IMG/VR virus record: IMGVR_UViG_3300030330_002885
Coordinates: 1-64,000 of that record
DNA: 64,000 bases
Reading direction: 5' to 3' (one strand)
Source of the DNA: a virus
Taxonomy: Duplodnaviria > Caudoviricetes
In this document: piece after piece, positions 73 to 24,054 of the stretch
Layout of the letters: each line of letters begins with the position of its first letter
Numbering within the stretch: position 1 is the stretch's first letter
Notes under the pieces: model-generated
What the model was told of the DNA's origin: nothing
Databases searched by the model: none
What the model saw: only the letters and a program-made list of their open reading frames with translations
Made by a program: the position numbers and the translations under genes

Positions 73-462
73 ATGACTTGGAAAGATATAGTGAAAATTA
101 GCGATTATGAGAAAGAGGTTGCAGAAGAATTTGCACCGGAAGAAATGAAACATTTTAATGAACTAAATAAAGTAATAGAATTTATGGAAGGGCCAGCATT
201 AGATACTTTAAGTGATATCTATATTGGAATGAACGAAAGATATATTTCAGGAAAATATGAGGAGTATGGCAAGAATGCAAAAAAACAGTATAAACAAGAT
301 AGAGAAAGAGCAAAGGCTACTGAAAGTGCGTTAGTTGGTTTCATAAAGGATTTGAAAAAATTAAGAAGTTTAGGTAGGTCGGATGAAAGAAATAAAGTTC
401 AAATTAAAACAACTCAAGGAGAAAGAAGTAAACAAAGAAAAGAACTTTTTGGTAGTGAATAA
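73..462 (+). CDS. Hypothetical protein with W-tag leader (MTWKDIVK); N-terminal paralog of 3823..4134
   Basis: ORF preceded by an AAGGAG RBS; the segment EKEVAEEFAPEEMK matches ERELAEEYAPEEMSK of 3823. Confidence 0.8.
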   Translation: MTWKDIVKISDYEKEVAEEFAPEEMKHFNELNKVIEFMEGPALDTLSDIYIGMNERYISGKYEEYGKNAKKQYKQDRERAKATESALVGFIKDLKKLRSLGRSDERNKVQIKTTQGERSKQRKELFGSE

Positions 463-464
463 AA

Positions 465-806
465 ATGACTTGGGAAAATATCGTCAAACGAAAAAAAGAA
501 TACTCAGAAGCACAACGTATGCTTACTGAGTTTTTTAATATTCCATTAAGTGAATTAAATAATCTTAATATTCCACCAAATTTAACTGCTGTATTGAGGT
601 TAGACTCTAATTTAGAAACAATTGATGAAGACAAATTTACTTTATTAATGATGTTATCCGAAGAAGGTAGGTATCAAGAAGTAGTAGATGTATTATCGAA
701 TTTCTTAAGTGCCGCTAGAGCAGAAAGAAGAAAAATCTATCAACAAACTAGCCCTAAGGCCATAGAATGGAGAAGAAAATATAATGAAAGTAGACGGAAA
801 AAATAG
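465..806 (+). CDS. Hypothetical protein with W-tag leader (MTWENIVK)
   Basis: Tightly packed ORF in the tagged array. Confidence 0.8.
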   Translation: MTWENIVKRKKEYSEAQRMLTEFFNIPLSELNNLNIPPNLTAVLRLDSNLETIDEDKFTLLMMLSEEGRYQEVVDVLSNFLSAARAERRKIYQQTSPKAIEWRRKYNESRRKK

Positions 807-817
807 GAAGGGGTAAA

Positions 818-1126
818 ATGAGTTGGATTGATATATTAAAAAATATGGATTCGGCTTTAGATAGAGTAAGAAATAAACCAAGAGAATTTAGGTGGATAGT
901 AGAAGGCTATAATAGACCATTAATTATACATTATATTAACGACCCCTCCGTTATTAAAATATTAAGAGAAAACGAATCCGATGTAAACCAAATGAATAAT
1001 TTGGAATTAAAGAACTTTTTAGAAAAAGATTTAGGAATAGAACCATCTCAAGAAGTATTAGATAATATGGCAAACCGATGGGGTTTAGAACAAGTTGGAC
1101 AAATTACTTGGAGGTATGAAAGATGA
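818..1126 (+). CDS. Hypothetical protein with W-tag leader (MSWIDILK)
   Basis: ORF with GGAAGGGG RBS; ATGA overlap with next gene. Confidence 0.8.
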   Translation: MSWIDILKNMDSALDRVRNKPREFRWIVEGYNRPLIIHYINDPSVIKILRENESDVNQMNNLELKNFLEKDLGIEPSQEVLDNMANRWGLEQVGQITWRYER

Positions 1127-1662: not shown

Positions 1663-1853
1663 CTTGGAAAGATATAATTAAAAGTTTTGAATGGTATTCA
1701 GAAAAAGGTTTTGAAAAGGCTAAAGAATTTAAAAACGAAGAAGAAGCACAACGTATGGCTGATAAATTAAATAGAGAATTACCTAAAGGAAGAAATAAAT
1801 GGAAGGTTGTTACTTTGTTTAGAAATCCGATGTTAAGAAGGAAGTATGATTAA
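1659..1853 (+). CDS. Small hypothetical protein with W-tag leader (MTWKDIIK)
   Basis: ORF with ATGA overlap; shares a 16-bp segment (EAQRM) with 465..806. Confidence 0.75.
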   Translation: MTWKDIIKSFEWYSEKGFEKAKEFKNEEEAQRMADKLNRELPKGRNKWKVVTLFRNPMLRRKYD

Positions 1854-1854
1854 A

Positions 1855-2112: not shown

Positions 2113-2117
2113 TTAAA

Positions 2118-2315: not shown

Positions 2316-2316
2316 T

Positions 2317-2939: not shown

Positions 2940-2940
2940 G

Positions 2941-3114
2941 ATGAATTGGTTTAATACAATTAAAGGTCAAAAAAAGTTACCAAAAGAATTAACCGAAGGT
3001 GCTACCGAGAGTAAGATTACTGCTGATAAATGGTTTAAAGAAAATCAAGCAAAAACAAAACCAACAGATAATACTAAAGGAACTAGACAAACTAAATTAG
3101 GTGAAGAAGAATGA
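2941..3114 (+). CDS. Small protein with W-tag leader (MNWFNTIK)
   Basis: ATG at 2941 after a GAGGGA RBS; the upstream GTG extension is unlikely. Confidence 0.7.
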   Translation: MNWFNTIKGQKKLPKELTEGATESKITADKWFKENQAKTKPTDNTKGTRQTKLGEEE

Positions 3115-3818
3115 GTTGGTTTAATATCCTAAAAGGGAGGTCTGTCGAATTTACTAATGGCTTTATTATGCTTTATGACCCTAGAGAGATTAGTGCTGAA
3201 AAAGCGATTGAGAAACATTATCCATTTAATATAACAGGTGGAAATCATTACGATATCAATACTTGGATTCCAATAGACGTTAAGGATGCTAATGGTTCTA
3301 GTTCTGCACCCTCAATAAATAACCATATATCCGCTATTGAGAAAAAACTAGGGAAATCATTGCCTAAAGACATGAGGGAACGAATGTTAGAGAGTGAAGA
3401 TATTGTAGATTTTATGCAAAAAATGTATGACCAACAAATAGGATTTATTTACATTGCTCCGACTTCATCTTGGAGAGAAAAAGTACCTTTTCATTTTGCA
3501 CAAATTGGTTATGAACAAGGAAATGGATTCAAGAATATGATAAATGCAGTTCCCATACCGGAAGACTATTGGCACTATGATAGTGCTATGAATAATAAAA
3601 GTGGAGTAGTAGTTTCAGGTGGAAAATTAAGTGAGTTTCATCAAAGTGGCTCAAGCAAGATGACTCAAGCATTGCGTGAATTAGATGGGGAAAGACCGGA
3701 AATAGGGCGTTGGAGAGAAGTTGAAGGTAATATTGCCAATCATAGGCAAGGTTCTCCTCAAGATATTGCAGTTGTAATGGAAAAAGTCATTGCTAGAAAA
3801 TTAGATAAGGATTGGTGA
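3111..3818 (+). CDS. Hypothetical protein with W-tag leader (MSWFNILK)
   Basis: 235-aa ORF with GGTGA RBS. Confidence 0.8.
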   Translation: MSWFNILKGRSVEFTNGFIMLYDPREISAEKAIEKHYPFNITGGNHYDINTWIPIDVKDANGSSSAPSINNHISAIEKKLGKSLPKDMRERMLESEDIVDFMQKMYDQQIGFIYIAPTSSWREKVPFHFAQIGYEQGNGFKNMINAVPIPEDYWHYDSAMNNKSGVVVSGGKLSEFHQSGSSKMTQALRELDGERPEIGRWREVEGNIANHRQGSPQDIAVVMEKVIARKLDKDW

Positions 3819-3822
3819 AAAG

Positions 3823-4134
3823 ATGAGTTGGGAAGATATAATTAAAGTGTCTAACTTAGAAAGAGAGTTAGCGGAAGAATATGCTCCTGAAGAAATGTCT
3901 AAATTTAAAGATACATTAAGCAAACTTAATCAATTGTCTAAAGAACTTAACCGAATAGTAAAGAAAGTAATTATTGAAGAAAACAATTTACAGGCTATTC
4001 AAGACTTTGAGGAATTTGCTGGCCCAATGGGTTCAGAAGAAAATGATAAAAGATTAACTAAAATGAAAGAGTTAGCATTAGAATACCAAAAGCAAATAAT
4101 CGCTTTGGAAGAAAAATTAAAAAGGGGTGGATAA
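3823..4134 (+). CDS. Coiled-coil protein with W-tag leader (MSWEDIIK); paralog of 73..462
   Basis: GGTGA RBS; shared ~26-aa N-terminus. Confidence 0.8.
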   Translation: MSWEDIIKVSNLERELAEEYAPEEMSKFKDTLSKLNQLSKELNRIVKKVIIEENNLQAIQDFEEFAGPMGSEENDKRLTKMKELALEYQKQIIALEEKLKRGG

Positions 4135-4485
4135 ATGACTTGGTTTGATAATGTTCAAAAGAAAAGAAATCCAAATAGATGGACTACTTTACAGGTTGGC
4201 CCAATATTAAGAGAATCTTTAGAAGAATGGCATAACACTATAAAAATAGGAGATGATTATAATATTCAAGAAATTAAAGAAGAAGTAAAGGATGACCTTT
4301 ATCAAAGAATGGTTAAACATAAAGGAAAAGATTTACCAGAAAGAAGCACAAAAAGATATCTGAAAAATTTTGATAAAAAAGGAGATGTTAAATTCGATAG
4401 AATTATTAGAGCATTTTTAAATAAAAATAATTATAGAGAATATTCAAGGTCTTATGAAAAAGACCGCTATGAAAAGATGGGGTGA
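4135..4485 (+). CDS. Hypothetical protein with W-tag variant (MTWFDNVQK)
   Basis: ORF abutting the previous stop; GGGGTGG RBS. Confidence 0.75.
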   Translation: MTWFDNVQKKRNPNRWTTLQVGPILRESLEEWHNTIKIGDDYNIQEIKEEVKDDLYQRMVKHKGKDLPERSTKRYLKNFDKKGDVKFDRIIRAFLNKNNYREYSRSYEKDRYEKMG

Positions 4486-4490
4486 ATAAG

Positions 4491-4844
4491 ATGTGGTTTG
4501 AAGAAGTCAAGAAAAAGAAAGATGCTTGTTACCATAAAGTAAAATCAAGATATAAAGAGTGGCCTTCTGCTTATGCTTCTGGCGCATTAGTTCAATGTAG
4601 AAAGGTAGGGGCAAAGAATTGGGGAAATTCTGTAAAGAAAGGACAATTTGATTTAGAAGAAAAAGAAGGATTACGTGGTTGGTTTAAGAGAAATAAAGGA
4701 AAAGGTTGGGTTTCATGCCAATCTTGTGAAGACGATAAAAAAGGCACAAAACCATGTGGAAGAACTGATGCTTCTAAAGGAACTAAACAAAGATGTAGGC
4801 CAAATTGTTCTGCGTGTAAAAATTACAAAAGAAGGAGGGGTTGA
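4491..4844 (+). CDS. Basic Cys-rich protein with W-tag variant (MWFEEVKK)
   Basis: DACYHKVKSRY.WPSAYASGALV.CRKVGA.NWG and GLRGWFK segments resemble small marine-phage proteins (recalled, not searched). Confidence 0.75.
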   Translation: MWFEEVKKKKDACYHKVKSRYKEWPSAYASGALVQCRKVGAKNWGNSVKKGQFDLEEKEGLRGWFKRNKGKGWVSCQSCEDDKKGTKPCGRTDASKGTKQRCRPNCSACKNYKRRRG

Positions 4845-4999
4845 AAATAACTTGGTGGGATATTATTAAAGAGGGTGGCCCTGTAGCATTTGGTGGACAC
4901 GGAACAGGAAATCAATCAGCGTTATTCAATATTAAATATGGAGGTAAAAAGAATGGTAAAAAAAGACACAAGAAAAAACCAAAGAGTAGGGAAGATTAA
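4841..4999 (+). CDS. Unlisted 52-aa basic protein with W-tag (MKITWWDIIKEGG...)
   Basis: Translated by hand: TTG start after GGAGGGG, overlapping the previous stop; TAA at 4997-4999. Confidence 0.65.
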   Translation: MKITWWDIIKEGGPVAFGGHGTGNQSALFNIKYGGKKNGKKRHKKKPKSRED

Positions 5000-6152
5000 T
5001 GGTCATACTATTACTCAAACATTAGATTTTTCTGATGTTACTAAAGATTACAAAAAGTGGAAAGAAGATTGTAAAAGTATGACCGGGTCTGAAATGGGTG
5101 TTAAAAATATTGGTAATTTATTACAAGCCGTTAAAAATCATGGCGTTCCAGAAATGCAAAGGCCAGAATCTTCATTAACTTTTAAACCAATGGAAAATGG
5201 AAAAGATATTATTAATTTCTTAGATAAACAATTAGACCCAAATACTTCAGAAATAGTTGATGCTGAAGTAGATATGGAACTAACAGACATATTAGAAAGA
5301 TTAGAACAGATGGAAAAATCTGGAGCAAATCCTAGAAATATTGTTTTTAATGTTCCTGATATGTCTGCAGTAGACCCCGATACTGCAGTATATGATGAAG
5401 AAGAAGATGTAACAACAGTTTATGGACATTATCGTACAGAAGATTATGTTGAATATAGAAACTTAAAAGCAAGAGTTAAAGATAATGATAAATATAGAGA
5501 AACAATATCACCTAATACGTCTTATTATGATACAGAAAAAAATCAAGCAAAACCACCACTTTGGCAAGCATTTTATTCCGGTGATGGTGAAACAGGAGAT
5601 GATATAAAGAAAGGATTAGTTGTAATTTTAAAATCAACTAAAAAGAAATTAGACGATGGAGAGTTAGCCGTTGAAGTTACTTTAAGGGGTGTTCCAAGAG
5701 GCGGTCTTGCTAATGATATAATGAACAGTTTACCGCAAGTAAGAGATTTCTTTAATAACGCAGTATCTAATCCTAAAAATGCACAATTTGTAAATCAAAA
5801 AACAGGGAACTTTAGAGATGATTTTGTTCAAAGGTTATTACAAAATAGACTTAGTTTTACAGTTCAACCTAAAAGTATTGAAGGAAAGGCAATAGAAAGG
5901 TTATTTGGTTTAGATGAAGAATCATTAGATGAAGAAGCACCATTAGGTGATGTTAAAGGATATACATTAAACATAACTAGAACTATGGTTAAGAACTTAG
6001 CAATGGAAACAGGTAAATGTAGGAGAAGGTCGGCTAAAGGGCCAATTTACTTAACGGAATTTACACAAGAAACTCCAAAGAAAACTTCAAAGAAAACTAA
6101 AGACAAGAAAGGATTAAAGAAATCTTGGAATGAAATATTAAAGGTGAATTAA
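4953..6152 (+). CDS. Hypothetical protein with C-terminal W-tag (KKSWNEILKVN)
   Basis: ATG at 4953 after a GGAGGT RBS, in frame with listed ORF 4890. Confidence 0.8.
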   Translation: MVKKDTRKNQRVGKINGHTITQTLDFSDVTKDYKKWKEDCKSMTGSEMGVKNIGNLLQAVKNHGVPEMQRPESSLTFKPMENGKDIINFLDKQLDPNTSEIVDAEVDMELTDILERLEQMEKSGANPRNIVFNVPDMSAVDPDTAVYDEEEDVTTVYGHYRTEDYVEYRNLKARVKDNDKYRETISPNTSYYDTEKNQAKPPLWQAFYSGDGETGDDIKKGLVVILKSTKKKLDDGELAVEVTLRGVPRGGLANDIMNSLPQVRDFFNNAVSNPKNAQFVNQKTGNFRDDFVQRLLQNRLSFTVQPKSIEGKAIERLFGLDEESLDEEAPLGDVKGYTLNITRTMVKNLAMETGKCRRRSAKGPIYLTEFTQETPKKTSKKTKDKKGLKKSWNEILKVN

Positions 6153-6809
6153 ATGGTAACTAGAAGAAGATGTAAACTTTGTATGGATGATGAAAGAGAT
6201 ACTTTAGAAACTCAATTAGAAACTTTAGAAATATCTCCTGATATGTTAGATAAACAAAAGGGCTGGTCAAGTGGAACTACTGCTAAACATTTAAGAAATC
6301 ATATGGGAGATTATTATGATTCATCTAATCCTCAATGTAAAATTTGTACATCTGAAATAAGAACTATGTTAGAAGAAAATTTATCAACAGGAAAGATAAC
6401 TCCTAATGCAGTTGCAGGTATGCTTGAATGTTCGGAATCACAAGTAAAGAGGCACATGACTAAACATCTTCAGCCCTTAGTTCAGAAGTCTGCCGCAACC
6501 CTAATAGCCAAAAAAGAAATAGACGAAATAGAAACCCTATCGAAAAATATCTCAAGGCTTGAAATTAAAATAGATGAGTTATTCGACCAAGATGAAATGA
6601 ATCCAAAATACATAGATAGTTTAACAAAATTAGCAAAAGAAGTTAGAGAGAGTCTTAGATATTTAATGGAGTTCAAAGGAAAACTTGTTCATAAAAGACA
6701 AGATACAATTATTGTTGCACAAATGCAAATTGTTCAAGAGGTATTAGCACAAAATCATCCTGAAGTTTGGTTAGATGTTAGAAGCAAGATGGAGGAGAAA
6801 TTACAATGA
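6153..6809 (+). CDS. Twin CxxC/HxxxH zinc-HTH repeat protein with coiled-coil tail; candidate terminase small subunit or DNA-binding protein
   Basis: CKLC...HLRNH and CKIC...HMTKH repeats with an HTH-like segment; GGTGA RBS. Confidence 0.5.
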   Translation: MVTRRRCKLCMDDERDTLETQLETLEISPDMLDKQKGWSSGTTAKHLRNHMGDYYDSSNPQCKICTSEIRTMLEENLSTGKITPNAVAGMLECSESQVKRHMTKHLQPLVQKSAATLIAKKEIDEIETLSKNISRLEIKIDELFDQDEMNPKYIDSLTKLAKEVRESLRYLMEFKGKLVHKRQDTIIVAQMQIVQEVLAQNHPEVWLDVRSKMEEKLQ

Positions 6810-7075
6810 ATTGGGAAGATATTGTTAAAAAGAAACGATATCCTACAACTGCTCAAAAGAAAAATAAAAATTGGAATAATCTCAGTGATGATGAAAGACT
6901 TGATGTTGAAATAGGTAGAAAAAGTAAAGGATTTCTAACTAGAGATAGAAAAAGGAGAGAGCAAGAAATAGAGGAAGCAAAAATTTGCTCTAAATGTGGT
7001 AAAAAGGATAATCCATACAGGGCTAAGTTTTGTATAAAATGCGGTAATAAAATGCAGGAATGGTGGAAAAGTTGA
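6806..7075 (+). CDS. Zinc-ribbon protein with W-tag leader (MNWEDIVK)
   Basis: CSKCG...AKFCIKCG. Confidence 0.75.
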   Translation: MNWEDIVKKKRYPTTAQKKNKNWNNLSDDERLDVEIGRKSKGFLTRDRKRREQEIEEAKICSKCGKKDNPYRAKFCIKCGNKMQEWWKS

Positions 7076-7523: not shown

Positions 7524-7524
7524 G

Positions 7525-9489
7525 ATGTGGTTTGAAACATTAAAATCTAAGTCGCCACTTAGCATAGTGGATAACTTAGAATTGAATTTATTTTCTGGCG
7601 CAGTAGATAATATCATAGACCATTACGAAAAAGATACAACAAACATTGTTGCTATGCGTAATAAAGCAAAGGATATATCAGAAGGTAATATTTCTCCAGA
7701 ACTTAAAGCAAAAACTAATGAGATGGTTCAAGCAGGTGCTAAACTTTATGAATTTTTAATTGAAAAAGAAAAGGAAAAAAGAGCCAGACCACAAAAGGAT
7801 AAATCTGTAACTAACATATTAGAAAAAATAGTTAATGAATCAGATGAAGAAGCATTAATTAATTATGTTGGAGCAGGATATAAAAGTTGGAGAGGAACAT
7901 TAAGAGAAGAAAAAAAGAACGCACTACTTCAAAAGAAAGACGAAATCATTTCTAAATTTATAACAAATAAAAAATTATTTGGTGTAAATTTAACAGACTA
8001 TTCAAGAACAATAACAAAAGAAATCACAGATGAGCAACGTGAAAAATTAAATTCTTATCTTTCTTCTAAAGAATTAAAAGTCGAAGGAGAAAAGATAGTA
8101 TATCCTGAAGCAATGGAATATGAGTCCTTTAAAAATATTGATTCATATTTAGCAGGTATGATAACAAATCGAGATAAAGAAGATTTAGATAACATACCTC
8201 CAATATTTTATTTAGAAACTAGCAAAGAAGGAAAGGCAATCAAATCTTATTTGTTAAAATTATATAATTTAGATATTGAAGATAGTACAATTGATAGACT
8301 ACCCAAAGACATTCAAAAGTATAAACCAAACATTAATAATAATTTAGATGTTACTCGATATCTTACTATTATTGCTGGCGACCAATATAAAAAATCAAAT
8401 AAGTTTGTTCCTATTCCAACAATTAAAAGCGGAACTGCTACTACTGTAGCAAGAGATAAATTATTGACTGTTAGAGGAACATCAATGCTTCATCCAACAT
8501 TAAGAGCATTATTAGGAAGTAGTAGATTAGATATATCTACCATTTTACAGATTGGACAAGAACAACAAAAGGTTAGATTTTTGCCTGTTAGTTTGAGAAT
8601 GTTAATGGAAGGCCAAATAGAAAAACCAGATGTAATTGATGATAAAGACCTTGAAAACTTAATAGATGAATACAATGATTCTACAGACTATAGTAGATTT
8701 ATTAATTCGGCCCAAAAAGAATATTCTAAACAAATACGCCAATTAATAGATTATTATTCTACACCAATACCTACATTTACTGAAAAAGAAAAAGAATTAA
8801 TTTCAAGTTTTGTTTCAGAAGGTTTCGATGAAAATGAAGTCGAGCCAGAAGAAACAATACAAAGTGCTTTAGAAGAATTTTACCAAAAAGAAATTGATGG
8901 TGAAACTATAAGAGATAAAATAATACCAATATTAGAAAAGGTAGATATTGATAATATTTTTGTTGATGCAAGAGGTAAATTAAAATTTAAACCCATTAAA
9001 GGAGTTAATACTGCAGAACAAACTGAATTTGTTAATTTATTCAGAAATCTAAGAATGAAAGAAGAAGAAGTTAAAATAGAAATTTCAGAACAAGAAGAAA
9101 TAGATGAATTATTAGAACTTAAAAAATTAAAAACAAATTATGTTCCTGAATATAATGAAATTAATTTAGCAAATATATTTTATTATTTGTATTATATTGA
9201 TATGCTTTATGCGAAAACAGGCTTTAAAAGACAATTGATTTCTTATTGGAGAACACCATTAGATGATGATGGTGAGTTTTCTGATGAAGAAAAAGAAAAT
9301 TTACAAAATATAATTAACTATGCAAAAGAAAATTATGTAGCAATTATGGATTCAATGAAAGAACCGATTGCAAATAAAATTCAAGATATTTTAGATAATC
9401 CTGTAGATTATCAAAAACTAATTACTTCTGGAAGGGGTGTAAATATTATTCAAAACCTTAGAAAGAATCAATTGATTGTGGAGGAATAA
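7525..9489 (+). CDS. Large helical protein with W-tag leader (MWFETLKS); candidate internal virion protein
   Basis: ATG at 7525 just after the previous stop, in frame with listed ORF 7471. Confidence 0.75.
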   Translation: MWFETLKSKSPLSIVDNLELNLFSGAVDNIIDHYEKDTTNIVAMRNKAKDISEGNISPELKAKTNEMVQAGAKLYEFLIEKEKEKRARPQKDKSVTNILEKIVNESDEEALINYVGAGYKSWRGTLREEKKNALLQKKDEIISKFITNKKLFGVNLTDYSRTITKEITDEQREKLNSYLSSKELKVEGEKIVYPEAMEYESFKNIDSYLAGMITNRDKEDLDNIPPIFYLETSKEGKAIKSYLLKLYNLDIEDSTIDRLPKDIQKYKPNINNNLDVTRYLTIIAGDQYKKSNKFVPIPTIKSGTATTVARDKLLTVRGTSMLHPTLRALLGSSRLDISTILQIGQEQQKVRFLPVSLRMLMEGQIEKPDVIDDKDLENLIDEYNDSTDYSRFINSAQKEYSKQIRQLIDYYSTPIPTFTEKEKELISSFVSEGFDENEVEPEETIQSALEEFYQKEIDGETIRDKIIPILEKVDIDNIFVDARGKLKFKPIKGVNTAEQTEFVNLFRNLRMKEEEVKIEISEQEEIDELLELKKLKTNYVPEYNEINLANIFYYLYYIDMLYAKTGFKRQLISYWRTPLDDDGEFSDEEKENLQNIINYAKENYVAIMDSMKEPIANKIQDILDNPVDYQKLITSGRGVNIIQNLRKNQLIVEE

Positions 9490-12593: not shown

Positions 12594-12597
12594 TAGA

Positions 12598-13278: not shown

Positions 13279-13279
13279 A

Positions 13280-13894: not shown

Positions 13895-13895
13895 G

Positions 13896-14546
13896 ATGTG
13901 GTTTAATATTCTTAAAAATAAATTACTTACTAAGCCTAAGACTCAGTTAAGAATCAAAGATGTTAAAGATATAGAAGATGACGAGCCTTGTAAAAAGAAA
14001 CTAGAAGAGTATAATAATTATTTTATAAAACAAAGGGATAACCATAATATACAAAACGATACTGAAATAACAAATATTTATAATAAGCATGGTTTAACAA
14101 ATCTTGAGGTAACTTCTTTTGATGATGGATTAACAATCGCTAGACATAATAATAGATTTAAAGGAGTAACTTCACTTTATTATATGACTGATAACCTTGA
14201 TAAAGATTTTTTAGAAATACCAGAAAAAGTAGCCTGTAGATTTTTAGATTTAATAGAAAGTGTGGCTGGTCGTCATAGTGAAGAAATGGATGGTTATAAA
14301 ATGTATTTAGAAAACATGATAGGAGAAAGAGAGCCGTTAGGAGATGATGTTTGGATTTGGGAATACCATAATTTTACTGCATACATTGCAAAAGCAGGGA
14401 GGTACGTTTATAGAATAGCCTTAAGTGGAACAATAATGGTTGAGGAAATAGATGTACTTTTAACAAATGATAGAGAAGCAACTAATTTTTATAATGATAT
14501 GTCGAATATAATAATGGATAAAATAGACTCAAAAAATTGGAAGTGA
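13896..14546 (+). CDS. Tandem paralog 4 of the KPKTQLR/DDEPCKK family, W-tag
   Basis: Same blocks; ends DSKNWK. Confidence 0.85.
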   Translation: MWFNILKNKLLTKPKTQLRIKDVKDIEDDEPCKKKLEEYNNYFIKQRDNHNIQNDTEITNIYNKHGLTNLEVTSFDDGLTIARHNNRFKGVTSLYYMTDNLDKDFLEIPEKVACRFLDLIESVAGRHSEEMDGYKMYLENMIGEREPLGDDVWIWEYHNFTAYIAKAGRYVYRIALSGTIMVEEIDVLLTNDREATNFYNDMSNIIMDKIDSKNWK

Positions 14547-15532: not shown

Positions 15533-15533
15533 A

Positions 15534-16430
15534 ATGAGAGGAATTAGAGAGAAAGTTCATCCTGTTCCTGCAGGAGATACTTTTGAAAACAATGGTGAAA
15601 CATTTACTGTTGTTGGCCCTCTTTCTGAACCTGAGTTTATTAGATTAGCAAATAGATGGCCCAATGCTAATAGATTACCTAGAAATAGACCAGAATCACC
15701 ATTTACTTTTTTTGGTGATGAAAATTATATTTGGGTAATCGTTGATGAATTTGGATATGTTGTTTCTAAAGTTGGAATAGTAGTATTAGATGATGTTATT
15801 GGAGATGCAGGTGCATATACTGTTGGAGGTTATGCAAGCCACCCAGAAAAATACGGTGATGATGCTAATTATACAAATAGAGGTTTTAACACTAAATTAG
15901 ACGAATACAGAATGCCTTTTGTTAAAGAACTTGCAACCGCCCGACAATTACCAATTGTATATGATTTATCAAATGATACAAAAAATAGACTAACAAAATA
16001 TCGTAATTTAGGTTTTGAAGTAAAAAGTAGTAATGATGAAAAACACCCTTTGTTGCCAGAAAAACATTTTGAAAAATTAAAATCAAGAAATAGAACTTAT
16101 GCTATTTATATTCCTAATACTTTAGAAGATGATGCAATGAGAAAGGCTTGGAGTATTATTAAAAAATCAACATATGAAGTATATGTGTATGATATTAAGT
16201 GGGATGCTACGGAGTCTGATAAAGAAAGAATGCCCTTACCAAATAACGGAATTTATTATATTCCTAGCACCACTGATTTAAATGATGATGAAGAAGTTTT
16301 AGATGCAATTAATGATTCAGTTGAAGACGCTCATGGTTTTGTTATGATGAATTTTAATTATGATATTAACGACCCAAACGAAAAAAGAGAGTTTGATAGT
16401 AAAACTAAGGAGATATACAAAAATGTCTGA
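15534..16430 (+). CDS. Putative GNAT acetyltransferase, followed by an internal W-tag and a small acidic domain
   Basis: YTNRGFNTKL (motif A-like) and KYRNLGFEV (motif B-like); then RKAWSIIKKS. Confidence 0.5.
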   Translation: MRGIREKVHPVPAGDTFENNGETFTVVGPLSEPEFIRLANRWPNANRLPRNRPESPFTFFGDENYIWVIVDEFGYVVSKVGIVVLDDVIGDAGAYTVGGYASHPEKYGDDANYTNRGFNTKLDEYRMPFVKELATARQLPIVYDLSNDTKNRLTKYRNLGFEVKSSNDEKHPLLPEKHFEKLKSRNRTYAIYIPNTLEDDAMRKAWSIIKKSTYEVYVYDIKWDATESDKERMPLPNNGIYYIPSTTDLNDDEEVLDAINDSVEDAHGFVMMNFNYDINDPNEKREFDSKTKEIYKNV

Positions 16431-17862
16431 AATAGAAGAATTAGATTTTATGTCTTCTATGGACATGGAACTTTCTAAAACATCTTTCCCTTATTTCTTT
16501 CAAAACGTTTTAGGTATGATGTACCCAGATTATATGCAAGAATGGTTAGAAACAATGCAACGTACAGATAGAACTGTAATTGTTTGTAGTCGTGACCACG
16601 GCAAATCAGTATTTATGCATAGTTGGGTAGTTTGGAATTTAATATTTCAAGAACCACCTTATCAAATGCTTTACATTTCTTCTAACCAAAAACAGACATT
16701 AGTTCACATGAGAGAAATAGATAGATATTTTAATTTACCACCACTTAAAAAATATAAACCAACAAGAGGTTGGGCTATTGGTAATATTACATTAACAAAT
16801 GGTAACTCAATTCTTGAAAGGTCAGTAGGTTCTCAGATTCGTGGTTTACACCCCCAAGAAATTATTATTGACGACCCTCTAAAAGAATTTAGTTTAGCGG
16901 GAATTAATAGAGTAACAGATTGGTTCTTTGGAGATATGATACCGACTCTACATCATACTGCTAATTTAAGAATGATTGGAACACCATTTACTTACACAGA
17001 CATATTTTCACAATTAGAAGAAAATCCGGCTTATACTGTTAGAAAATATCCATGTTTAAATTCATTAAACGAACCACTATGGCCCGCTCGTTGGGATTAT
17101 GATGCACTAATGCAAAGAAAAGCAGAAATTGGTTCATTAAAATTTACAAGAGAATATTTGTGTATTCCAATATCTACAGGAACTTCTTTGTTTTCTCCCG
17201 AACATTTAGAAAATTCTAAACATAAAGATTTAATTCTTAGGTTAGGTAATAGAAAAGATAAAGGGTATAAATACTATGTTGGAGTAGACCCCGCTATTTC
17301 TACTGATGGAGATTATAATGTAATTATGGTTTTAGAAGTTGATGACGAAAAAAATAAATCTATTGTTCATGTAGATAGAGCAAAGAATGTTCAGTTTAGA
17401 GAAAACATAGAAAAGTTAAGACTTATTGGTAAAATATTTCAACCGGAAGCAGTATTATATGAAACTAATACTTTTGCTAAAGCATTTACTCAAGAATTAA
17501 GAAGTGTTACAGATATGAATATTAAGGACTTTAATACGACAAGACGTAAAAAGCAAGAAATAATATTAAATCTACAAATGAATTTTGAAAACAAAAAGAT
17601 ACATTTGCCGTATGGAGATAATAATAGTAAAAGGATGAGCGGGATGTTAATTGAAGAATTATCTATGTTTTCCATTACCGACACAGGAAAGTTTGAAGGC
17701 GTAGGCGCACACGATGATTTAGTGATGGCCCTAGCCTTAGCAAATGCGGCTACTCAAACGCCTTCTGAGTCCTTTATGCTACTTGACGATATGGAGATAT
17801 TTGATGCGCCAGAAACGCCTCTATTGAACAATTATTCGGGTATGATAGGATTAAATTTTTAG
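16423..17862 (+). CDS. terL: Terminase large subunit
   Basis: Walker A SRDHGKS, Walker B IIIDDP, motif III IGTP, nuclease VGVDPA and HDDLVMALALA; ATG at 16423 after AAGGAG. Confidence 0.95.
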   Translation: MSEIEELDFMSSMDMELSKTSFPYFFQNVLGMMYPDYMQEWLETMQRTDRTVIVCSRDHGKSVFMHSWVVWNLIFQEPPYQMLYISSNQKQTLVHMREIDRYFNLPPLKKYKPTRGWAIGNITLTNGNSILERSVGSQIRGLHPQEIIIDDPLKEFSLAGINRVTDWFFGDMIPTLHHTANLRMIGTPFTYTDIFSQLEENPAYTVRKYPCLNSLNEPLWPARWDYDALMQRKAEIGSLKFTREYLCIPISTGTSLFSPEHLENSKHKDLILRLGNRKDKGYKYYVGVDPAISTDGDYNVIMVLEVDDEKNKSIVHVDRAKNVQFRENIEKLRLIGKIFQPEAVLYETNTFAKAFTQELRSVTDMNIKDFNTTRRKKQEIILNLQMNFENKKIHLPYGDNNSKRMSGMLIEELSMFSITDTGKFEGVGAHDDLVMALALANAATQTPSESFMLLDDMEIFDAPETPLLNNYSGMIGLNF

Positions 17863-17867
17863 GTTAG

Positions 17868-19262
17868 GTGAACAAGATGACTAAATCACAAGAACTAGAA
17901 GAAAAAAGAGGTAAACTACAGAATAAACTTAATACTTTAGATGAAGTATTACCACAAGTAAAAGAAGTAGAAGACAAACTTCAACAGATAGAAACAAAGG
18001 ATAATAGAGAAGAAACAGAAGGAGTAATCAAATGGCTACAGGCACAACCATTAAGAGGCCATAGTGAATTAGTCAAAAAATATGCTAAAGATAATAATAT
18101 AAACTTAACAGAAGCAGATAAAATTCTCGATATTAAAATAAATAAATATGAAATAGAAGGTAAAGGAATACCGGACTTAATTAAAGATATGAGAAAATAC
18201 AGAAGAACTTTAAAGGGAGATAGTAAATTAGATTTTACTAAAGCAATTGATGATGTTATTGATGGTTATACAGATTATTTAAATAAATCAATTGATAAAA
18301 TTTATTGGGTTAGTAAATATCAACCTGTTCTTAAGGAAATGAATTGTAAACCTAAAGACCTTGAGAAATTAAATAAAATAAAAGACGAAGATACACGAAG
18401 GACAGTTGTAGATTGTTTATGTAAATATTGGGAAGATAAACAAGAAATAAAAGAATTATCAATTAATAAAGATTATGCTATATTATATAAGAGTATGGCT
18501 AATTCAAGAAAACAATTTAAAAAGATATTAAAAGATAGGTCTGTAACATTAACTCCAAAACAAGAAATTAAAAAATCTATTATTGATATGGTTTGTGAAA
18601 ATCCGGGAATATCAGCAAGAGAATTACATGAAGGTTTGCCTGATAAATTACACAAAAAATCTTCTACACACATTATAGCAAAGTTAGCCAAAGAAGAAAA
18701 TATAACTCATGTTGATGGTGCATACTATAAAATAAATGATGATATTAAGAAAAATATCTGGGCTTATACTGCGGCATTTATTGATTCAGATGGATATATA
18801 ACAATGGATAAAAATTATAATCCTAGAGTTGGTTTAATAGCAACAGGAGATAGAGGTAAGGCTTTCATGTTAGAAATGCATAAATCATTGGGTTGTGGTA
18901 GATTACACTTAGACCAAAAATCACCACAAGATACACGGCCCGTAAATAGGCTTAATTTTTATTCACAAGATGATGTTAGAAAACTATTAGTAAAATGTCT
19001 TCCTCATTTTAGAATGAAAAAATCAAATGCAGAATTATTATTAGAATTAATTAGAATAAAAAAAGGATTCAAGAAACAAGATTGGTATAAGGAAAGAGTT
19101 GAGGAAATATACAAATTAATGAAGTGGGAGAACCACAAGGATAATAAGAACTACGACTTTAGCCAATACGGGATAGACCCAACAACAGTTGCAAAATTAC
19201 ATGGTAATAATAAGACATCTGTAATGGATGAGTTAGAAAACATTGGAACAGTAGTGGAGTGA
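17868..19262 (+). CDS. LAGLIDADG-domain protein with long N-terminal helical region and winged HTH
   Basis: WAYTAAFIDSDGYI helix and downstream LAGLIDADG-type strands; IIDMVCENPGISARELH is wHTH-like. Confidence 0.8.
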   Translation: MNKMTKSQELEEKRGKLQNKLNTLDEVLPQVKEVEDKLQQIETKDNREETEGVIKWLQAQPLRGHSELVKKYAKDNNINLTEADKILDIKINKYEIEGKGIPDLIKDMRKYRRTLKGDSKLDFTKAIDDVIDGYTDYLNKSIDKIYWVSKYQPVLKEMNCKPKDLEKLNKIKDEDTRRTVVDCLCKYWEDKQEIKELSINKDYAILYKSMANSRKQFKKILKDRSVTLTPKQEIKKSIIDMVCENPGISARELHEGLPDKLHKKSSTHIIAKLAKEENITHVDGAYYKINDDIKKNIWAYTAAFIDSDGYITMDKNYNPRVGLIATGDRGKAFMLEMHKSLGCGRLHLDQKSPQDTRPVNRLNFYSQDDVRKLLVKCLPHFRMKKSNAELLLELIRIKKGFKKQDWYKERVEEIYKLMKWENHKDNKNYDFSQYGIDPTTVAKLHGNNKTSVMDELENIGTVVE

Positions 19263-19266
19263 TAAA

Positions 19267-20904
19267 ATGGCTGAAAGAAGAACATTTAGTATTACTAACT
19301 TGTTTAGGCGTAGTACACCTACACCTAAAGATAGAACGGTATTTAATCCGGGTATTCAAGAGAAAGATACAAGTTATATGATAACTTCGCCCGTATTATA
19401 TCATATAGCCCAACAATCTGTAATTGTTAGAAGTTGCACAACACAGTTAAAAAATGAGATATTTAGAAGAGGTTATGTTTGGGAAGAATCTTTTGCTATG
19501 AAATGTGCAAAATGTGGAAATGAACATAGTTCTCCCGTAATTCAGTGTTCAGATTGTAAAAGTACAGATTTAATTAAACCAAGAAAAGAACAACTTAAAT
19601 ATGCAGAAAAATTCTTAAAGGGATATGTAAATAGTTCTGAGCAACTATTTATAGATGTTTTAAAAGAATTAGAAGATGATTTGAATATCATGGATGATGC
19701 ATATATTATTTTAGTTAAAGAATATTATTTAGATAATACGGGAACTATTAGAATGCATAAAATAAATGAAGTCTTTAGAGGCGACCCTGTAACAATGCAT
19801 CTTTATACTGATGATAACGGAGAAAAAGGAAATACGGGTTTTACTTGTATTAAACATAGAGATGTAATTTCTGATAATCCTGTAGGACATTGTGAATTAT
19901 GCGGTGATGACCTTCATCCTATTCATTATGTGAATAGAGCAAACGGAAAAGAACAATATTATTTAGAAGGAGAAGTATTACACTTTAGTAAATATTCACC
20001 TAGTAGATTATACGGTCTTTCTCCTGTCTTAACTTTATGGAATCATATTACTACATTGCTTGCAATGGAAAATTATGTAAATTCTTCATATGCTAAAGCA
20101 AGAATGCCGAGAGGATTATTAGCAGTTCAAACAAGAAACGTAGATTCTATGAAATCCTTTTGGCGTGGTGTTAAAGAAAAGATGGAACAAGACCCACACT
20201 TCATACCTGTTATGGGAATTGAAGCAGAAAATGGTAAAGGTTCTATTGAATGGATTAAATTCTTAGATAGTCTTAAGGAAATGGATTATATTGCAGTTAA
20301 GGATGACTTAAGAGATAGAATATGTGGTTTCTATGGAGTTAGTAAAGTATTCATGGCAGATAATTCTGCTAGTGGTGGATTAAATAATGAAGGTATGCAA
20401 ATACTTGTTACTAATCGTGCAGTAGAAATGGCTCAGACTATTTGGAATAATTATGTATTTCCGTTTATTACAGAAGAATTTGGAATTACAGATTGGCGAC
20501 TTAAACTTCCACCTTCTGAAGAAGAAGATGAATTGGCTAAATTAAGACTTAGAGAAATAGAAGTGCAAATTGCCGCATCAATTAAAAATCTAGGCTTTGA
20601 AGTAGAAATGGATGATAAAGGAAGATTCACATATAAAAAGGAACAACCTATGGAACAACAAAATAAAGATTCTGATAAACCCATAGATAAAGACCCATTC
20701 GCAGGTACAAATATTGATGCTTCACAATTAGGACAATTACAGGAACAAGCGTTAAGTGGCGAAACAAGTAAGCCCCAAGAGAACCCCGCTACCACAAGAA
20801 ATAAACCATCATCCAGCACAGGGCCGGATAAGAGGTTTAGTGGTTTACCCGCAGAAGCAGGTAATAAGAATGTAGATAAAAGAACTGAAAGAAGAGTTGG
20901 TTAA
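19267..20904 (+). CDS. Portal protein with zinc-ribbon insertions
   Basis: EVLHF...LYGLSPV, ARMPRGLL and ICGFYGVS portal motifs; position after terL; CxxC pairs. Confidence 0.9.
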   Translation: MAERRTFSITNLFRRSTPTPKDRTVFNPGIQEKDTSYMITSPVLYHIAQQSVIVRSCTTQLKNEIFRRGYVWEESFAMKCAKCGNEHSSPVIQCSDCKSTDLIKPRKEQLKYAEKFLKGYVNSSEQLFIDVLKELEDDLNIMDDAYIILVKEYYLDNTGTIRMHKINEVFRGDPVTMHLYTDDNGEKGNTGFTCIKHRDVISDNPVGHCELCGDDLHPIHYVNRANGKEQYYLEGEVLHFSKYSPSRLYGLSPVLTLWNHITTLLAMENYVNSSYAKARMPRGLLAVQTRNVDSMKSFWRGVKEKMEQDPHFIPVMGIEAENGKGSIEWIKFLDSLKEMDYIAVKDDLRDRICGFYGVSKVFMADNSASGGLNNEGMQILVTNRAVEMAQTIWNNYVFPFITEEFGITDWRLKLPPSEEEDELAKLRLREIEVQIAASIKNLGFEVEMDDKGRFTYKKEQPMEQQNKDSDKPIDKDPFAGTNIDASQLGQLQEQALSGETSKPQENPATTRNKPSSSTGPDKRFSGLPAEAGNKNVDKRTERRVG

Positions 20905-20905
20905 T

Positions 20906-21121
20906 ATGACTAAAGACAAAACAGTAAGAGAACTCCAAAGGGAGTTAAAAATTGCAAAGAATAAAGAATGGAATGAAAGAAAAATTTCTTCTAATAAAAA
21001 CTTAGATTACATAGGGCCAGACCCAACATCTGTAAAGAAGGATATACCGGATATGGCAGATATTCCTGATTATGTAGGATTGCCTAAGAAGAAGAAAAGA
21101 ATGACTGAAAATAAGTGGTAA
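20906..21121 (+). CDS. Small hypothetical protein
   Basis: ORF directly after portal. Confidence 0.65.
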   Translation: MTKDKTVRELQRELKIAKNKEWNERKISSNKNLDYIGPDPTSVKKDIPDMADIPDYVGLPKKKKRMTENKW

Positions 21122-21122
21122 T

Positions 21123-23459
21123 ATGAATTTCTTTGACTTGCTCAAAAGAGAGCAAACTATCATCGAGAAAGCACCTTCTAGTGGAACATTTAAAAATTTA
21201 TTATTTGCAGAATTAGATAAAAAATCTAACAAAATAGGTAGCAGTACAGTATTAAGGCATAAATTTATGCGGAACAATTCTAGAGATACAAGTTATAATT
21301 TTCAAGTAGATTTGGTTAAAGAAACAATTAATAATGCATTGAAGAATAAAGAAGATGCTTTGTTAAATCAAAATTATAAAACAAATAGGAGAGGAGGTAA
21401 GACCTTTCCCTCTAAAAAAGAAAGAGTCAATCTTGTAGATGAAATAGGCTCAATTCAAGAAAAAACCTTAATGGAAGAAGAACTTACTATTCAATATGCA
21501 AAGTCCGAAAATAAAGATGATGCTAAATTATATTTTGATTTAGTTAAACCATTTTTAACTGAGCAACAAAAATCTGCTTATGAATCAAATTTTGAACGTA
21601 GCCCAATGTCTGTCGTAAATAGTGCGTTGAAATTTATTAATTCTATGAGCGTTCAGAATGAAATTTTGTTAAAAGGCAGTGAAGCAGGAATTAATTTATT
21701 AAAACAAGATATTGATACGGAGAAAAAGTCATTAGAAATTATCGAAGATATTATAAAGGATTTAAATAAAAAAAGAATGACTAAAAAGAATAAAGAAGAA
21801 CTATTAGGTAAAGATATAGAAAAGGTATCGAGCCAAGAAAAAATAAGTGAGTTATCAAAAACTTTAGAAGACAGTAAAAATAAACTTACTGAACTTAAGA
21901 ATGAAAAGAAACAAATTGATAAAATTTATAAAACTCTTGATGCCCAAGATAAAGAAATTGAATTTATAAAAACAAAATGGTCTGATATACCTGATAATAT
22001 AATTTCTAAAGATAGAAAAGATAAAATTAATGAAGTCGAAAAAAGAGTAAAGAAAATAGAACAAGAAATTGATAAATTACCTGATAATAAAGTATTAGAA
22101 ATAAATCAAAAATTAGAACGTAAAAATCAATTAGTTAATTTTTATCTAACTCAAAAATATAAAATTCAAAAAGAATATACTTATAGAGGTCAAAATTATA
22201 ATACCAAAGAAGAAGCATTAAGAGCGGCATCAGATGTAATTTATGGTTATATCCCTCTAGGAATCACTGATAGAAAATACAAAGATGTTCCAACAATGGG
22301 TGGTGAGTTATCTGTAAAAACAACAGGAAATCAATCAATATTAATAGATGGTTTGCAAGAATTAGACTTTAATCAGAAAATGAAAACTGTAGTTATTAAT
22401 ATAATTAGAAATGATATAGTTCCCACCAATAAACAGAAACTACCTCAACCGGAAAAAACCAAAGATAAACAAACAGAAATAATGTTAAACATATTAGAAA
22501 AATTAGATGCAAATCAAACTATTACTCCTGCGCTTATTAGAAAGGCTAAGAAAGCAAAGATATTTAAAAATAAGTATTTAATTAAATTAACAGATGGTGG
22601 AAAAACTTTGATTCCAAGAATAAGAAATTACTTATATCAACCTAGAGAAGTTAAGGGTAAAATAGTACAGGGAGAATTTGATACAACTTCATTATATGAT
22701 GAATTTGAAGATTTAGTTCGACAAAATACTAATCTAAGAGAATTACCTTCTGCTCGTAAAATTAGGAGCACTGCAAAAGCAATTCGTGGAGATAAATATA
22801 TTAAAAGCGTGTCTTCACTAGTTAAAGATATTATAGATAATAAATATGTAGTACCAGATGAAAATATAATTATGAGGCATATAGAAAATATAGATAATAA
22901 ATTATTAGAAGTAATTGAAAAATGGAATACTTTAATAGAACCTTTAGTAGAAGTATCTAACGAAAGAATGCTAACATTAACAGGTATTGATAATAAGGTT
23001 ACAGAAACTTTCCAAAACCAAGAAGAAGATAGAGATGAAATGTTAGAAGCAGAAGAACTGAGAGGTAAAATGCTTGAAAGAATTTCTAAAGAAATAAGAA
23101 GAACCTATGAAATAATAGACATGACTTTAAGAGCATTTAGACTATCCCTTCCAATATTAGAAGAATCAATTGACCAAGATATTTCACCATCATACACTGA
23201 AACTATAAATACTTTTATAACAAGATACCAAACAATATTAAGCACAAGAACAAGAGAGTTTAACGATATTGAAAAAGATTACGAAACTATTTCTAACTTG
23301 ATTCCTAGATTTGAAGAAATTTCACAAATACAAGAAATTACAAATGTAGATTATAGAAATCCAAAGGCGATAGAAGATTTAAAGGTAATACCTACATTAT
23401 TAGAAGGTGATGTTGAAGCAAACATTCGTGAAAGATTTAAGGGAGGAGAAGAAGAATGA
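21123..23459 (+). CDS. Large coiled-coil protein with Phe variant of the tag (MNFFDLLK)
   Basis: 778-aa ORF rich in K/E heptads. Confidence 0.75.
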   Translation: MNFFDLLKREQTIIEKAPSSGTFKNLLFAELDKKSNKIGSSTVLRHKFMRNNSRDTSYNFQVDLVKETINNALKNKEDALLNQNYKTNRRGGKTFPSKKERVNLVDEIGSIQEKTLMEEELTIQYAKSENKDDAKLYFDLVKPFLTEQQKSAYESNFERSPMSVVNSALKFINSMSVQNEILLKGSEAGINLLKQDIDTEKKSLEIIEDIIKDLNKKRMTKKNKEELLGKDIEKVSSQEKISELSKTLEDSKNKLTELKNEKKQIDKIYKTLDAQDKEIEFIKTKWSDIPDNIISKDRKDKINEVEKRVKKIEQEIDKLPDNKVLEINQKLERKNQLVNFYLTQKYKIQKEYTYRGQNYNTKEEALRAASDVIYGYIPLGITDRKYKDVPTMGGELSVKTTGNQSILIDGLQELDFNQKMKTVVINIIRNDIVPTNKQKLPQPEKTKDKQTEIMLNILEKLDANQTITPALIRKAKKAKIFKNKYLIKLTDGGKTLIPRIRNYLYQPREVKGKIVQGEFDTTSLYDEFEDLVRQNTNLRELPSARKIRSTAKAIRGDKYIKSVSSLVKDIIDNKYVVPDENIIMRHIENIDNKLLEVIEKWNTLIEPLVEVSNERMLTLTGIDNKVTETFQNQEEDRDEMLEAEELRGKMLERISKEIRRTYEIIDMTLRAFRLSLPILEESIDQDISPSYTETINTFITRYQTILSTRTREFNDIEKDYETISNLIPRFEEISQIQEITNVDYRNPKAIEDLKVIPTLLEGDVEANIRERFKGGEEE

Positions 23460-23779
23460 CTTGGGAAAATATATTATTAAAAGAGTATTCGCCTATTATG
23501 GAGAAAACAAATAGCAAAGTAAAGAAAAGAATTAAAAAGAAATTACAAATTTCTAAACCATCAGAATATATGGGCCAAGACTTTACTAAACTTTCAGATT
23601 TATTAGATGAGTTAGATAAAATTAATGTTGAAAAATCTGATAAAAAACAATTACAAAAACTAAAGGATAAAAATTTATCATTAGTTTCAAAGTCAGCAAA
23701 ATTAAGAAAAGACTATGAAAAATTATATAGAGAATTGAGAGATATGATATATCCAAAAAACAAAGGTGATTTAGAATGA
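23456..23779 (+). CDS. Coiled-coil protein with W-tag leader (MTWENILLK)
   Basis: First 17 nt identical to the start of ORF 465; GGAGG RBS. Confidence 0.8.
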   Translation: MTWENILLKEYSPIMEKTNSKVKKRIKKKLQISKPSEYMGQDFTKLSDLLDELDKINVEKSDKKQLQKLKDKNLSLVSKSAKLRKDYEKLYRELRDMIYPKNKGDLE

Positions 23780-24054
23780 ATTGGAAAGATGAAATGAAAA
23801 AACAAGCAGACTGTAAGGTAACAGTTTGTGATGCCATTAATTGTATGTATAATGCTAATAAGCGTTGTACTTTAGATGAAATAACAATTAACTCAAACGG
23901 TAAATGTGATTATTTTGTAGTTAGAAAGGACAACAAAATGCCCGAACCCAAATATGTTAATTTTACACCAAAAACAGTTGATAGATTAAAGAGAACTGTT
24001 AGGGAAAATCCAACTCAAGGAATAAATGAAGAATTAAATCGAAGAAGAAGGTGA
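23776..24054 (+). CDS. Cys-rich DUF1540-like protein with W-tag variant (MNWKDEMKK)
   Basis: CDAINCMYNANKRCTLDEITI...C pattern. Confidence 0.65.
   Translation: MNWKDEMKKQADCKVTVCDAINCMYNANKRCTLDEITINSNGKCDYFVVRKDNKMPEPKYVNFTPKTVDRLKRTVRENPTQGINEELNRRRR

Follow-up and report, generated by a model that had tools for sequence, protein, structure and literature searches.

A shared tryptophan-based terminal helix on hypervariable proteins of a magrovirus-like virus is a candidate procapsid-docking signal

We analysed a window of DNA comprising bases 1-64000 of the 92,994-base IMG/VR record IMGVR_UViG_3300030330_002885, a tailed-virus genome with a CheckV completeness of 99%, in which 23 + strand open reading frames (ORFs) within positions 73-24054 start with one and the same short peptide, M-[S/T/N/D]-W-x-[D/E/S/N]-[I/V]-[L/I/V]-K or a close variant, hereafter the tag. 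Variants of this motif also stand at the very ends of head-assembly proteins encoded further downstream, among them a prohead protease fused to a scaffold-like half. On balance we lean towards reading the motif as a procapsid-docking helix that would load a hypervariable set of cargo proteins into the capsid. The bolder proposal, that a single Trp helix, borrowed from or shared with the scaffold-protease, would serve as a universal label bringing 15-25 proteins per genome, out of hundreds of rapidly replaced families, into the capsid for co-injection, is one that we put forward more tentatively.

A common N-terminal tag on the structural arm

An initial annotation of this DNA, made from the sequence, had listed 23 starts carrying the motif, and all 23 do carry it, six of them as loose variants (4135, 4491, 4841, 12598, 23456 and 23776); the Phe variant that it reported at 21123 is likewise present (MNFFDLLK). 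A strict DNA version of the pattern, ATG-NNN-TGG-N6-RTH-NTN-AAR, matches the window 13 times, exclusively on the + strand, whereas 100 dinucleotide shuffles give a chance expectation of 0.09 +/- 0.29. The tag is absent from all 57 called ORFs of the minus-strand replication arm. The present genome, 80 portal loci and three complete relatives together gave 350 unique tags, of which 347 are on the structural strand, either upstream of the terminase or between portal and protease. The proposed confinement of the tag to the structural arm thus holds, as does its absence from tail and replication genes, both here and in the three complete relatives, the nearest thing to an exception being one small tagged ORF just downstream of the capsid genes in relative G002.

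The initial annotation had also described most of the tagged proteins as unrelated beyond the tag. When BLASTP was run without the first 10 residues, the links found were limited to four paralogs at 11931-14546 and to the pair 73/3823, so that the window holds about 19 independent tagged families; most of the proteins are indeed unrelated, though they do not amount to 23 families. The label 'ART-like', given to the product of 2317-2703, found no support in Pfam or PHROGs.

The tag is constrained as a peptide and predicted to be helical

The logo of the 350 unique tags reads M-[S 46%, T 15%, N, D]-W-[F/E/Q/K]-[D/E/S/N]-[I/V/T]-[L/I/V]-K, with the Trp and the Lys nearly invariant and conservation ending abruptly past the Lys. 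When the search was run with no Lys requirement, this residue was still present in 91% of 743 tags, and most of the others had a Lys one position later. At the Leu position all six codons are in use, more evenly than in the genome background, all three codons of the tag Ile occur, and the Lys is encoded by AAA and AAG at 60/40. Judging by this free variation of synonymous codons, and by the recurrence of the motif at C-termini (see below), the constraint on the tag acts on the protein rather than purely on nucleotides, as expected of the peptide label first proposed.

Because its Trp, Ile and Leu fall at positions i, i+3 and i+4, with an N-cap residue ahead of the Trp and an acidic residue at N3, the tag is predicted from residue spacing to be an N-capped amphipathic helix of two turns. 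In an AlphaFold2 (AF2) model of the 654-aa tagged protein, with a predicted local distance difference test score (pLDDT) of 77, the tag forms a separate helix at residues 2-9, modelled with low confidence, ahead of a Pro-rich linker.

The motif recurs at the C-termini of head-arm proteins

Three families, all encoded on the + strand, carry the motif at the C-terminus. The first is the S78 prohead protease (27057-28292), which matches Pfam Peptidase_S78 over residues 21-177 as well as the PHROG for head maturation protease, and which is fused to a helical, scaffold-like C-terminal half ending in the helix LSWGELHNIV (28242-28271). All orthologs of this protease-scaffold end in M/L-S-W-x-[D/E]-[I/L]-[H/N]-x-hydrophobic, about 12 residues before the stop, and S397, W398 and H402 are invariant across 30 aligned orthologs. 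The AF2 model of the C-terminal half shows a helical hairpin (residues 306-384, pLDDT mostly 64-85) followed by a terminal helix of residues 398-410, beginning with W398, which, as modelled, would be the usual look of a scaffolding protein. The protease half gave a poor model (pLDDT ~30), and searches of PDB sequences with the protease-scaffold returned one spurious match only.

The second is a conserved 76-aa head-module protein (24059-24289), which ends K-M-D-W-N-E-I-N-D-M-V (helix MDWNEINDMV, 24236-24265) and whose M-[D/S/E]-W-x-[D/E/Q]-I tail is kept in 75 of 75 orthologs. The third is a 420-aa protein, otherwise untagged (ORF 4890-6152), whose sequence ends KKSWNEILKVN, that is, in a copy of the motif (SWNEILK, 6123-6143) followed by VN and the stop codon; the family keeps its C-terminal motif in five genomes, with ortholog ends SWREMIAW, DWRTVMKVVV, DWRSIMKVNA and SWSEMLWRD. 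By chance, [ML][STND]W.[DE][ILV] should occur 1.4 times in four genomes that total 126,486 residues, and its hits beyond N-termini are chiefly the tails of the protease-scaffold and of the 76-aa protein.

A prohead protease must enter the shell and a scaffold must bind the coat, both usually by way of their C-terminal ends; Duda and colleagues (2013; a study cited in PMC12749128) are reported to have placed the capsid-binding element of the HK97-type protease at its C-terminal end. The presence of a motif variant at the ends of both the protease-scaffold and the conserved 76-aa protein ties the tag to head assembly, where the initial annotation had placed it, and the interpretation given there is in this way supported in part.

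HK97 cuts its own capsid protein after a Lys. In the HK97-fold capsid protein of the present genome (28294-29634, + strand), the N-arm contains a candidate maturation site, A-V-L-K/S (28363-28377), whose [L/I]-K-[S/A/G] core is conserved in 53 of 53 orthologs (the block can also be given as an invariant L-L-K-[S/A]). The N-terminus of the same protein, M-G/S-G-Y-I-K-T-M-K (28300-28317), is kept in orthologs and loosely fits aromatic-x-x-T-hydrophobic-K; it may be a degenerate copy of the docking element, or it may be chance. The protease, for its part, has two invariant F-x-I-L-K blocks that resemble the tag core, at 27096-27110 and 27552-27566 (residues 14-18 and 166-170). Since residues 166-170 fall within the Pfam S78 match and residues 14-18 immediately precede it, both blocks may simply belong to strands of the fold, and we discounted them as self-cleavage sites.

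Tagged families are numerous and turn over rapidly

In 2.8 Mb of related DNA the distinct tagged ORFs number 836; they fall into 381 BLAST families, come to 15-25 per genome and encode proteins with a median of 109 aa. Of the tagged proteins, 42% are basic and 38% acidic. Pfam and PHROGs found almost nothing in the tagged ORFs of the window beyond a DUF5872-like domain, a DUF1540 and a zinc ribbon, and Pfam found almost nothing in 148 representatives of the tagged families. Nearly all tagged genes of this genome lack a homolog in the three complete relatives, despite 74-86% identity in the large terminase subunit (TerL) and portal; in the same relatives the capsid proteins are 64-79% identical and an untagged 218-aa neighbour 62-76%. 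Such fast turnover would fit proteins that meet the host.

The 654-aa protein (7525-9489, MWFETLK) belongs to the sole tagged family found in most relatives, at ~25% identity. A profile search with it among 1.84 billion representatives reached 41 clusters, all within its own family, and a word-based homolog search returned the self-match only.

Two tagged genes have domains with known homologs. The 85-aa product of 1855-2112 consists of MTWEDILK and a basic Cys domain with untagged homologs in gp65 of Roseobacter phage CRP-7 and within fusion proteins of cyanomyoviruses, and the 117-aa product of 4491-4844 consists of MWFEEVK, a DUF5872-like domain with homologs in 370 phage records and a second Cys-rich domain. 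In CRP-7 the three domains of these two ORFs are small untagged genes, gp65, gp64 and gp63, directly upstream of the terminase; in cyanomyoviruses the domains form part of larger fused proteins, of which that of cyanophage S-B68 is annotated as 'structural protein, T4-like GC0119'. Going by these homologs and their annotation, the tagged domains appear elsewhere in virion-associated or terminase-adjacent genes, and since they occur untagged in bacterial marine phages, the tag is a modular add-on peculiar to this archaeal-type lineage.

The same basic Cys-containing domains lie at 2940-3586 of CRP-7, as separate genes, and at 562-2007 of cyanophage S-H35, as one 481-aa fusion that adjoins the gene for the small terminase subunit. 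The domain set is thus common to viruses of both host domains, and in this archaeal-type virus it takes the form of separate tagged genes.

A model of procapsid docking and its alternatives

From the arrangement of genes and motifs we infer a sequence of procapsid binding, cleavage, packaging and injection. In the proposed helix, a Ser, Thr, Asn or Asp would form the cap, the Trp, Ile/Val and Leu/Ile/Val would line one face, and the Lys would come last. The C-terminal helices of the protease-scaffold and of the 76-aa protein would presumably bind either the scaffold core or the inner surface of the shell, and the accessory proteins, presenting their N-terminal helix on a flexible linker, would be taken into the prohead along with the scaffold. 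The tag Lys may then be the P1 residue for the S78 protease, in which case the cargo would be freed from its anchor, remain with the DNA and enter the host on infection. Release by S78 after the Lys is suggested by the near invariance of this residue in the tag, together with the presence of a Lys in the conserved block of the capsid N-arm; cleavage would not be required for the motif to function, because the motif also sits at C-termini.

Several points weigh against this model. The residue that follows the tag Lys is unconstrained, which is unusual for a tight protease site. In its last two positions the cargo tag has L-K, where the helices of the scaffold and the 76-aa protein have H/N-x, so that a receptor shared by cargo and scaffold helices can only be presumed, and although these two C-terminal helices covary across loci (4.98/11 identical, compared with 4.42 when shuffled, a level that 0 of 5000 shuffles reached), the covariation test ignores shared ancestry. 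The acidic 38% of the tagged proteins sets them apart from the internal proteins of T4, which are basic. The 654-aa protein, the one tagged protein that is widely conserved, resembles in structure none of the known ejection or internal proteins: its AF2 model has no significant match in the PDB and in BFVD matches unnamed proteins only (itself, one that is 23% identical and three more distant ones), and leads from the ESM Atlas for this protein (T7 gp15 and crAss cargo protein 2) were weak and unconfirmed, and we set them aside. Finally, the tagged proteins are known here from their genes alone, and the closest cultured relative by protease, HVTV-1, is devoid of tags, so that nothing can be transferred from an experimental system.

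An unlikely alternative, though one with arguments of its own, is that the helix docks to a hub outside the capsid, such as a chaperone, a membrane, a host factor or a viral compartment for replication or assembly. In that case the tagged proteins would act inside the cell as unpackaged host-takeover or anti-defence effectors, and head assembly would be recruited to the hub through the helices of the scaffold and the 76-aa protein. The tagged genes do resemble early host-takeover genes in being small, hypervariable and familyless, W-x-x-hydrophobic peptides are a common type of short linear motif, the sizeable acidic fraction fits here as well, and the fold of no tagged protein matches that of a known virion protein. 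However, the tags lie on the structural strand, among overlapping genes led by Shine-Dalgarno sequences that run into terminase, portal and protease, while the replication arm lacks them, and the motif is found at the extreme C-terminus of the protease-scaffold. Nor is there any sign of host-motif mimicry: among 185,579 prokaryote genomes the coding pattern turned up as 36 scattered matches, one at a time, which is close to the ~26 roughly estimated for chance, and none of them was in Poseidoniales.

It is improbable, in our estimate, that the helix is merely an exosite for the prohead protease and that the tagged proteins are its substrates, switched on, inactivated or destroyed as the head matures and not necessarily retained or delivered. 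The near-invariant Lys, its counterpart in the L-L-K-[S/A] block of the capsid protein, and the helix found on the protease itself and on a neighbouring head protein would all agree with such a role. Yet cleavage at a C-terminal tag, with just 2-4 residues after it, would release a trivial product, and it is hard to explain why hundreds of variable families would be kept merely for degradation. Moreover, since prohead proteases act inside the prohead, an exosite would overlap largely with procapsid docking.

Very improbable is a signal in the nucleic acid or for translation, that is, a favoured initiation region or a homology block for the swapping of cassettes, in which the peptide would have no role. 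The bases around the tag starts do show regularities: codon 2 is biased towards A-N-T, its Ser being AGT in 96% of cases, a Shine-Dalgarno-like GGAGG stands at -12 to -8, the tags at 73, 1123 and 1659 share 18 identical bases, and cassette turnover is extreme. But untagged genes likewise prefer a purine at +4 and AGY serine, and the bias at codon 2 is therefore a general effect of start context. The hydrophobic positions, in contrast, alternate between Ile, Val and Leu with all synonymous codons, the Trp and Lys are nearly invariant, and the same peptide is conserved at C-termini, away from start sites; recombination between tags may well occur, as a consequence of their shared sequence and not as its reason. 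Least credible of all is an amphipathic helix for membrane binding or export, sending proteins to the host envelope or outside, for although Trp and Lys in such a predicted helix favour a membrane interface, eight residues of which three are hydrophobic fall short of what a signal peptide or a stable membrane anchor needs, no hydrophobic stretch or signal-peptidase motif follows the tag, and the same helix ends the protease-scaffold of a membrane-less capsid.

Tagged genes of the window

All tagged genes described here lie on the + strand. The first 15 open with ORF 73-462 (129 aa, MTWKDIVK), which has no family in Pfam or PHROGs, and continue with 465-806 (113 aa, MTWENIVK), 818-1126 (102 aa, MSWIDILK), 1123-1662 (179 aa, MTWKDILK) and 1659-1853 (64 aa, MTWKDIIK). 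The tags at 73-96, 1123-1146 and 1659-1682 have 18 bases in common (ATGACTTGGAAAGATATA), direct repeats that could mediate the gain and loss of cassettes in the hypervariable block. Beyond the Cys-domain gene at 1855 follow 2118-2315 (65 aa, MDWKKVIK), with an 80% identical homolog in G002, 2317-2703 (128 aa, MSWKDILK), which has no family match, the very basic 79-aa product of 2700-2939 (MNWFGIVK) and the 57-aa product of 2941-3114 (MNWFNTIK). The 235-aa protein encoded at 3111-3818 (MSWFNILK) gave a SUKH-1 match below threshold and nothing else, while the 103-aa protein of 3823-4134 (MSWEDIIK) resembles the product of ORF 73 in its N-terminal 18 aa. The loose variant MTWFDNVQK starts a 116-aa protein (4135-4485), and on the far side of the DUF5872-like gene at 4491 a TTG-initiated ORF of 52 aa (4841-4999) has its tag three residues in (KITWWDIIK) and belongs to a small conserved family also seen in relatives G001 and G010.

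Further downstream, an 89-aa protein (6806-7075) joins MNWEDIVK to a zinc ribbon, and the gene for the 654-aa protein is followed at some distance by the four paralogs, at 11931-12593 (MTWFSIVK), 12598-13278 (GTG start, (M)WFSIIK), 13280-13894 (MWFKILK) and 13896-14546 (MWFNILK). The 778-aa ORF with the Phe variant (21123-23459) comes just after the portal gene; its positional counterparts in relatives open with MSFMDVLK and show no other detectable similarity to it. The last two tagged genes encode a 107-aa protein in which the Lys is shifted by one (23456-23779, MTWENILLK) and a 92-aa protein in which MNWKDEMK precedes a DUF1540 (23776-24054).

An internal tag-like sequence, AWSIIKK (16146-16166, + strand), lies within ORF 15534-16430. 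A tagged protein of relative L015 has an N-terminus like the STYEVYVY that comes after this sequence, and the last third of this ORF therefore looks like a formerly separate tagged cassette that was fused in frame. The ORF itself (298 aa) fills what had appeared to be an 830-base gap before the terminase gene and shares 70 bases with the start of that gene as annotated; the true terminase start is probably further downstream, near MSEIEELDF.

Distribution beyond the genome

The coding pattern of the tag is frequent in IMG/VR, with at least 120 matching stretches; all seven contigs that we inspected had further tags, and all five that we searched with the protease belonged to this kind of virus. 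Tags are absent from HVTV-1, CRP-7 and cyanophage S-B68. One tagged contig of 184,733 bases, IMGVR_UViG_3300021958_000021, is rated 100% complete and has two copies of the protease-scaffold, 91 kb apart and 57-59% identical to the query; we rejected it as a separate lineage, since assembly has probably joined two related genomes in it. G010, in which the protease had no match, was similarly rejected as a different kind of virus, being an incomplete genome of the same kind. The motif is not mentioned in the magrovirus papers PMC5434244 and PMC11706807, nor in the wider literature that we searched, and it appears to be both undescribed and lineage-wide.

Genomic context

Magroviruses are tailed viruses assigned to Marine Group II archaea (Poseidoniales). 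Viruses like them rank among the most abundant that infect archaea of the surface ocean, and most of their genes have no assigned function. The + strand arm of the present genome (~1 to 59,800) is gene-dense, with many small ORFs and the structural genes: the large terminase subunit (16360-17862), a conserved HNH-like protein of 464 aa (17868-19262), the portal (19267-20904), an 837-aa ligase-like protein (24505-27018), the protease-scaffold and capsid genes described above, a tail tube-like protein and very large fibre genes. The 33-kb minus-strand arm (60-93 kb) encodes a split family-B DNA polymerase (PolB), RFC, a canonical three-domain ATP-dependent ligase, a ThiF-family protein and a ribonucleotide reductase. 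Judged by the protease, the nearest isolates are Haloarcula tailed viruses, at ~31% identity. A related portal occurs on at least 209 IMG/VR contigs, of which the best 80 are 71-79% identical, in addition to one identical copy. Its genes make the genome magrovirus-like, in that they fit the published magrovirus architecture of ~90-100 kb with a halovirus-related head module and its own PolB, RFC and ligase (PMC5434244).

Several neighbouring genes deserve mention. Two genes are of the ATP-dependent ligase type, the three-domain one on the replication arm (genome 76425-78005) and that of the 837-aa protein, in which the adenylation domain alone is recognisable; the latter sits between portal and protease and is 51-62% identical in three relatives. 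The HNH-like gene between terminase and portal is 56-57% identical in all three complete relatives and behaves as a fixed part of the packaging module, not as a mobile homing endonuclease. The ThiF/E1-like protein of the replication arm (genome 80450-81016) is kept in relatives. No tRNA was found in the window, and a scan for bacterial-type promoters and terminators stayed at background level.

Significance and comparison with known systems

If procapsid docking is the function of the motif, one label would assign a fifth of the genome, together with hundreds of dark-matter families, to a single functional class, that of proteins travelling with the capsid, and would point to a site of virus-host conflict in an uncultured system. 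The principle of capsid targeting would extend from T4 to archaeal viruses and S78 proteases, effector delivery by capsids would occur on a scale undescribed for viruses of prokaryotes, and foreign proteins could be packed into HK97-fold capsids simply by means of the tag. A test of the docking hypothesis needs no more than three recombinant parts, namely the capsid protein, the protease-scaffold and a reporter fused to the tag, and the tag, being easily searched, can be used now to annotate related genomes.

The Trp helix at the end of the protease-scaffold resembles the encapsidation tail of the HK97 maturation protease and the coat-binding helices of scaffolding proteins such as P22 gp8 in lying at the extreme C-terminus and directly upstream of the gene for an HK97-fold capsid protein. 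Those signals, however, are reportedly private to the protease or scaffold, whereas a variant of the Trp helix is common to hundreds of accessory proteins.

The cargo-loading peptides of encapsulins offer a second likeness, as they too are short and terminal and occur at either end of unrelated proteins; they dock on the inner face of a shell with the HK97 fold, as the tag may do. They differ in their consensus, which is rich in Gly, Ser and Leu where the tag is built on a Trp, and in their small sets of enzymatic cargo; encapsulins also have no DNA, protease, scaffold or portal, whereas the tag locus has terminase, portal, protease and tail genes.

In the giant phages phiKZ and SPN3US, many different internal head proteins share a short motif at which the prohead protease cuts them, and these proteins are ejected into the host (PMC7411985, PMC5694885). 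Their propeptides are of variable length and share only the cleavage tripeptide, with its Glu; the tag is an eight-residue predicted helix, in genomes with a protease of another family.

As proposed, the tag would work like the capsid targeting sequence (CTS) of T4, an N-terminal peptide found on diverse proteins (IPI-III and Alt) of plastic loci, which directs them to the prohead core and ends at a site for the prohead protease (PMC3012670, PMC7411985). The tag has no sequence similarity to the CTS; it ends in Lys (M-S-W-x-D-I-L-K) where T4 has (L/I)-x-Glu, and the protease of the tagged genomes is of the S78 (HK97) type, unlike the gp21-type enzyme of T4. Since sequence, cleavage residue and protease family all differ, the tag is not a member of the T4 CTS family. 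It also differs in scale, each genome having 15-25 tagged genes and the families numbering at least 381, compared with a handful in T4, in its additional occurrence at C-termini and on the scaffold-protease, and in the presumed archaeal host. What the two systems have in common is the arrangement itself, a short N-terminal peptide on otherwise unrelated proteins encoded near the head genes.

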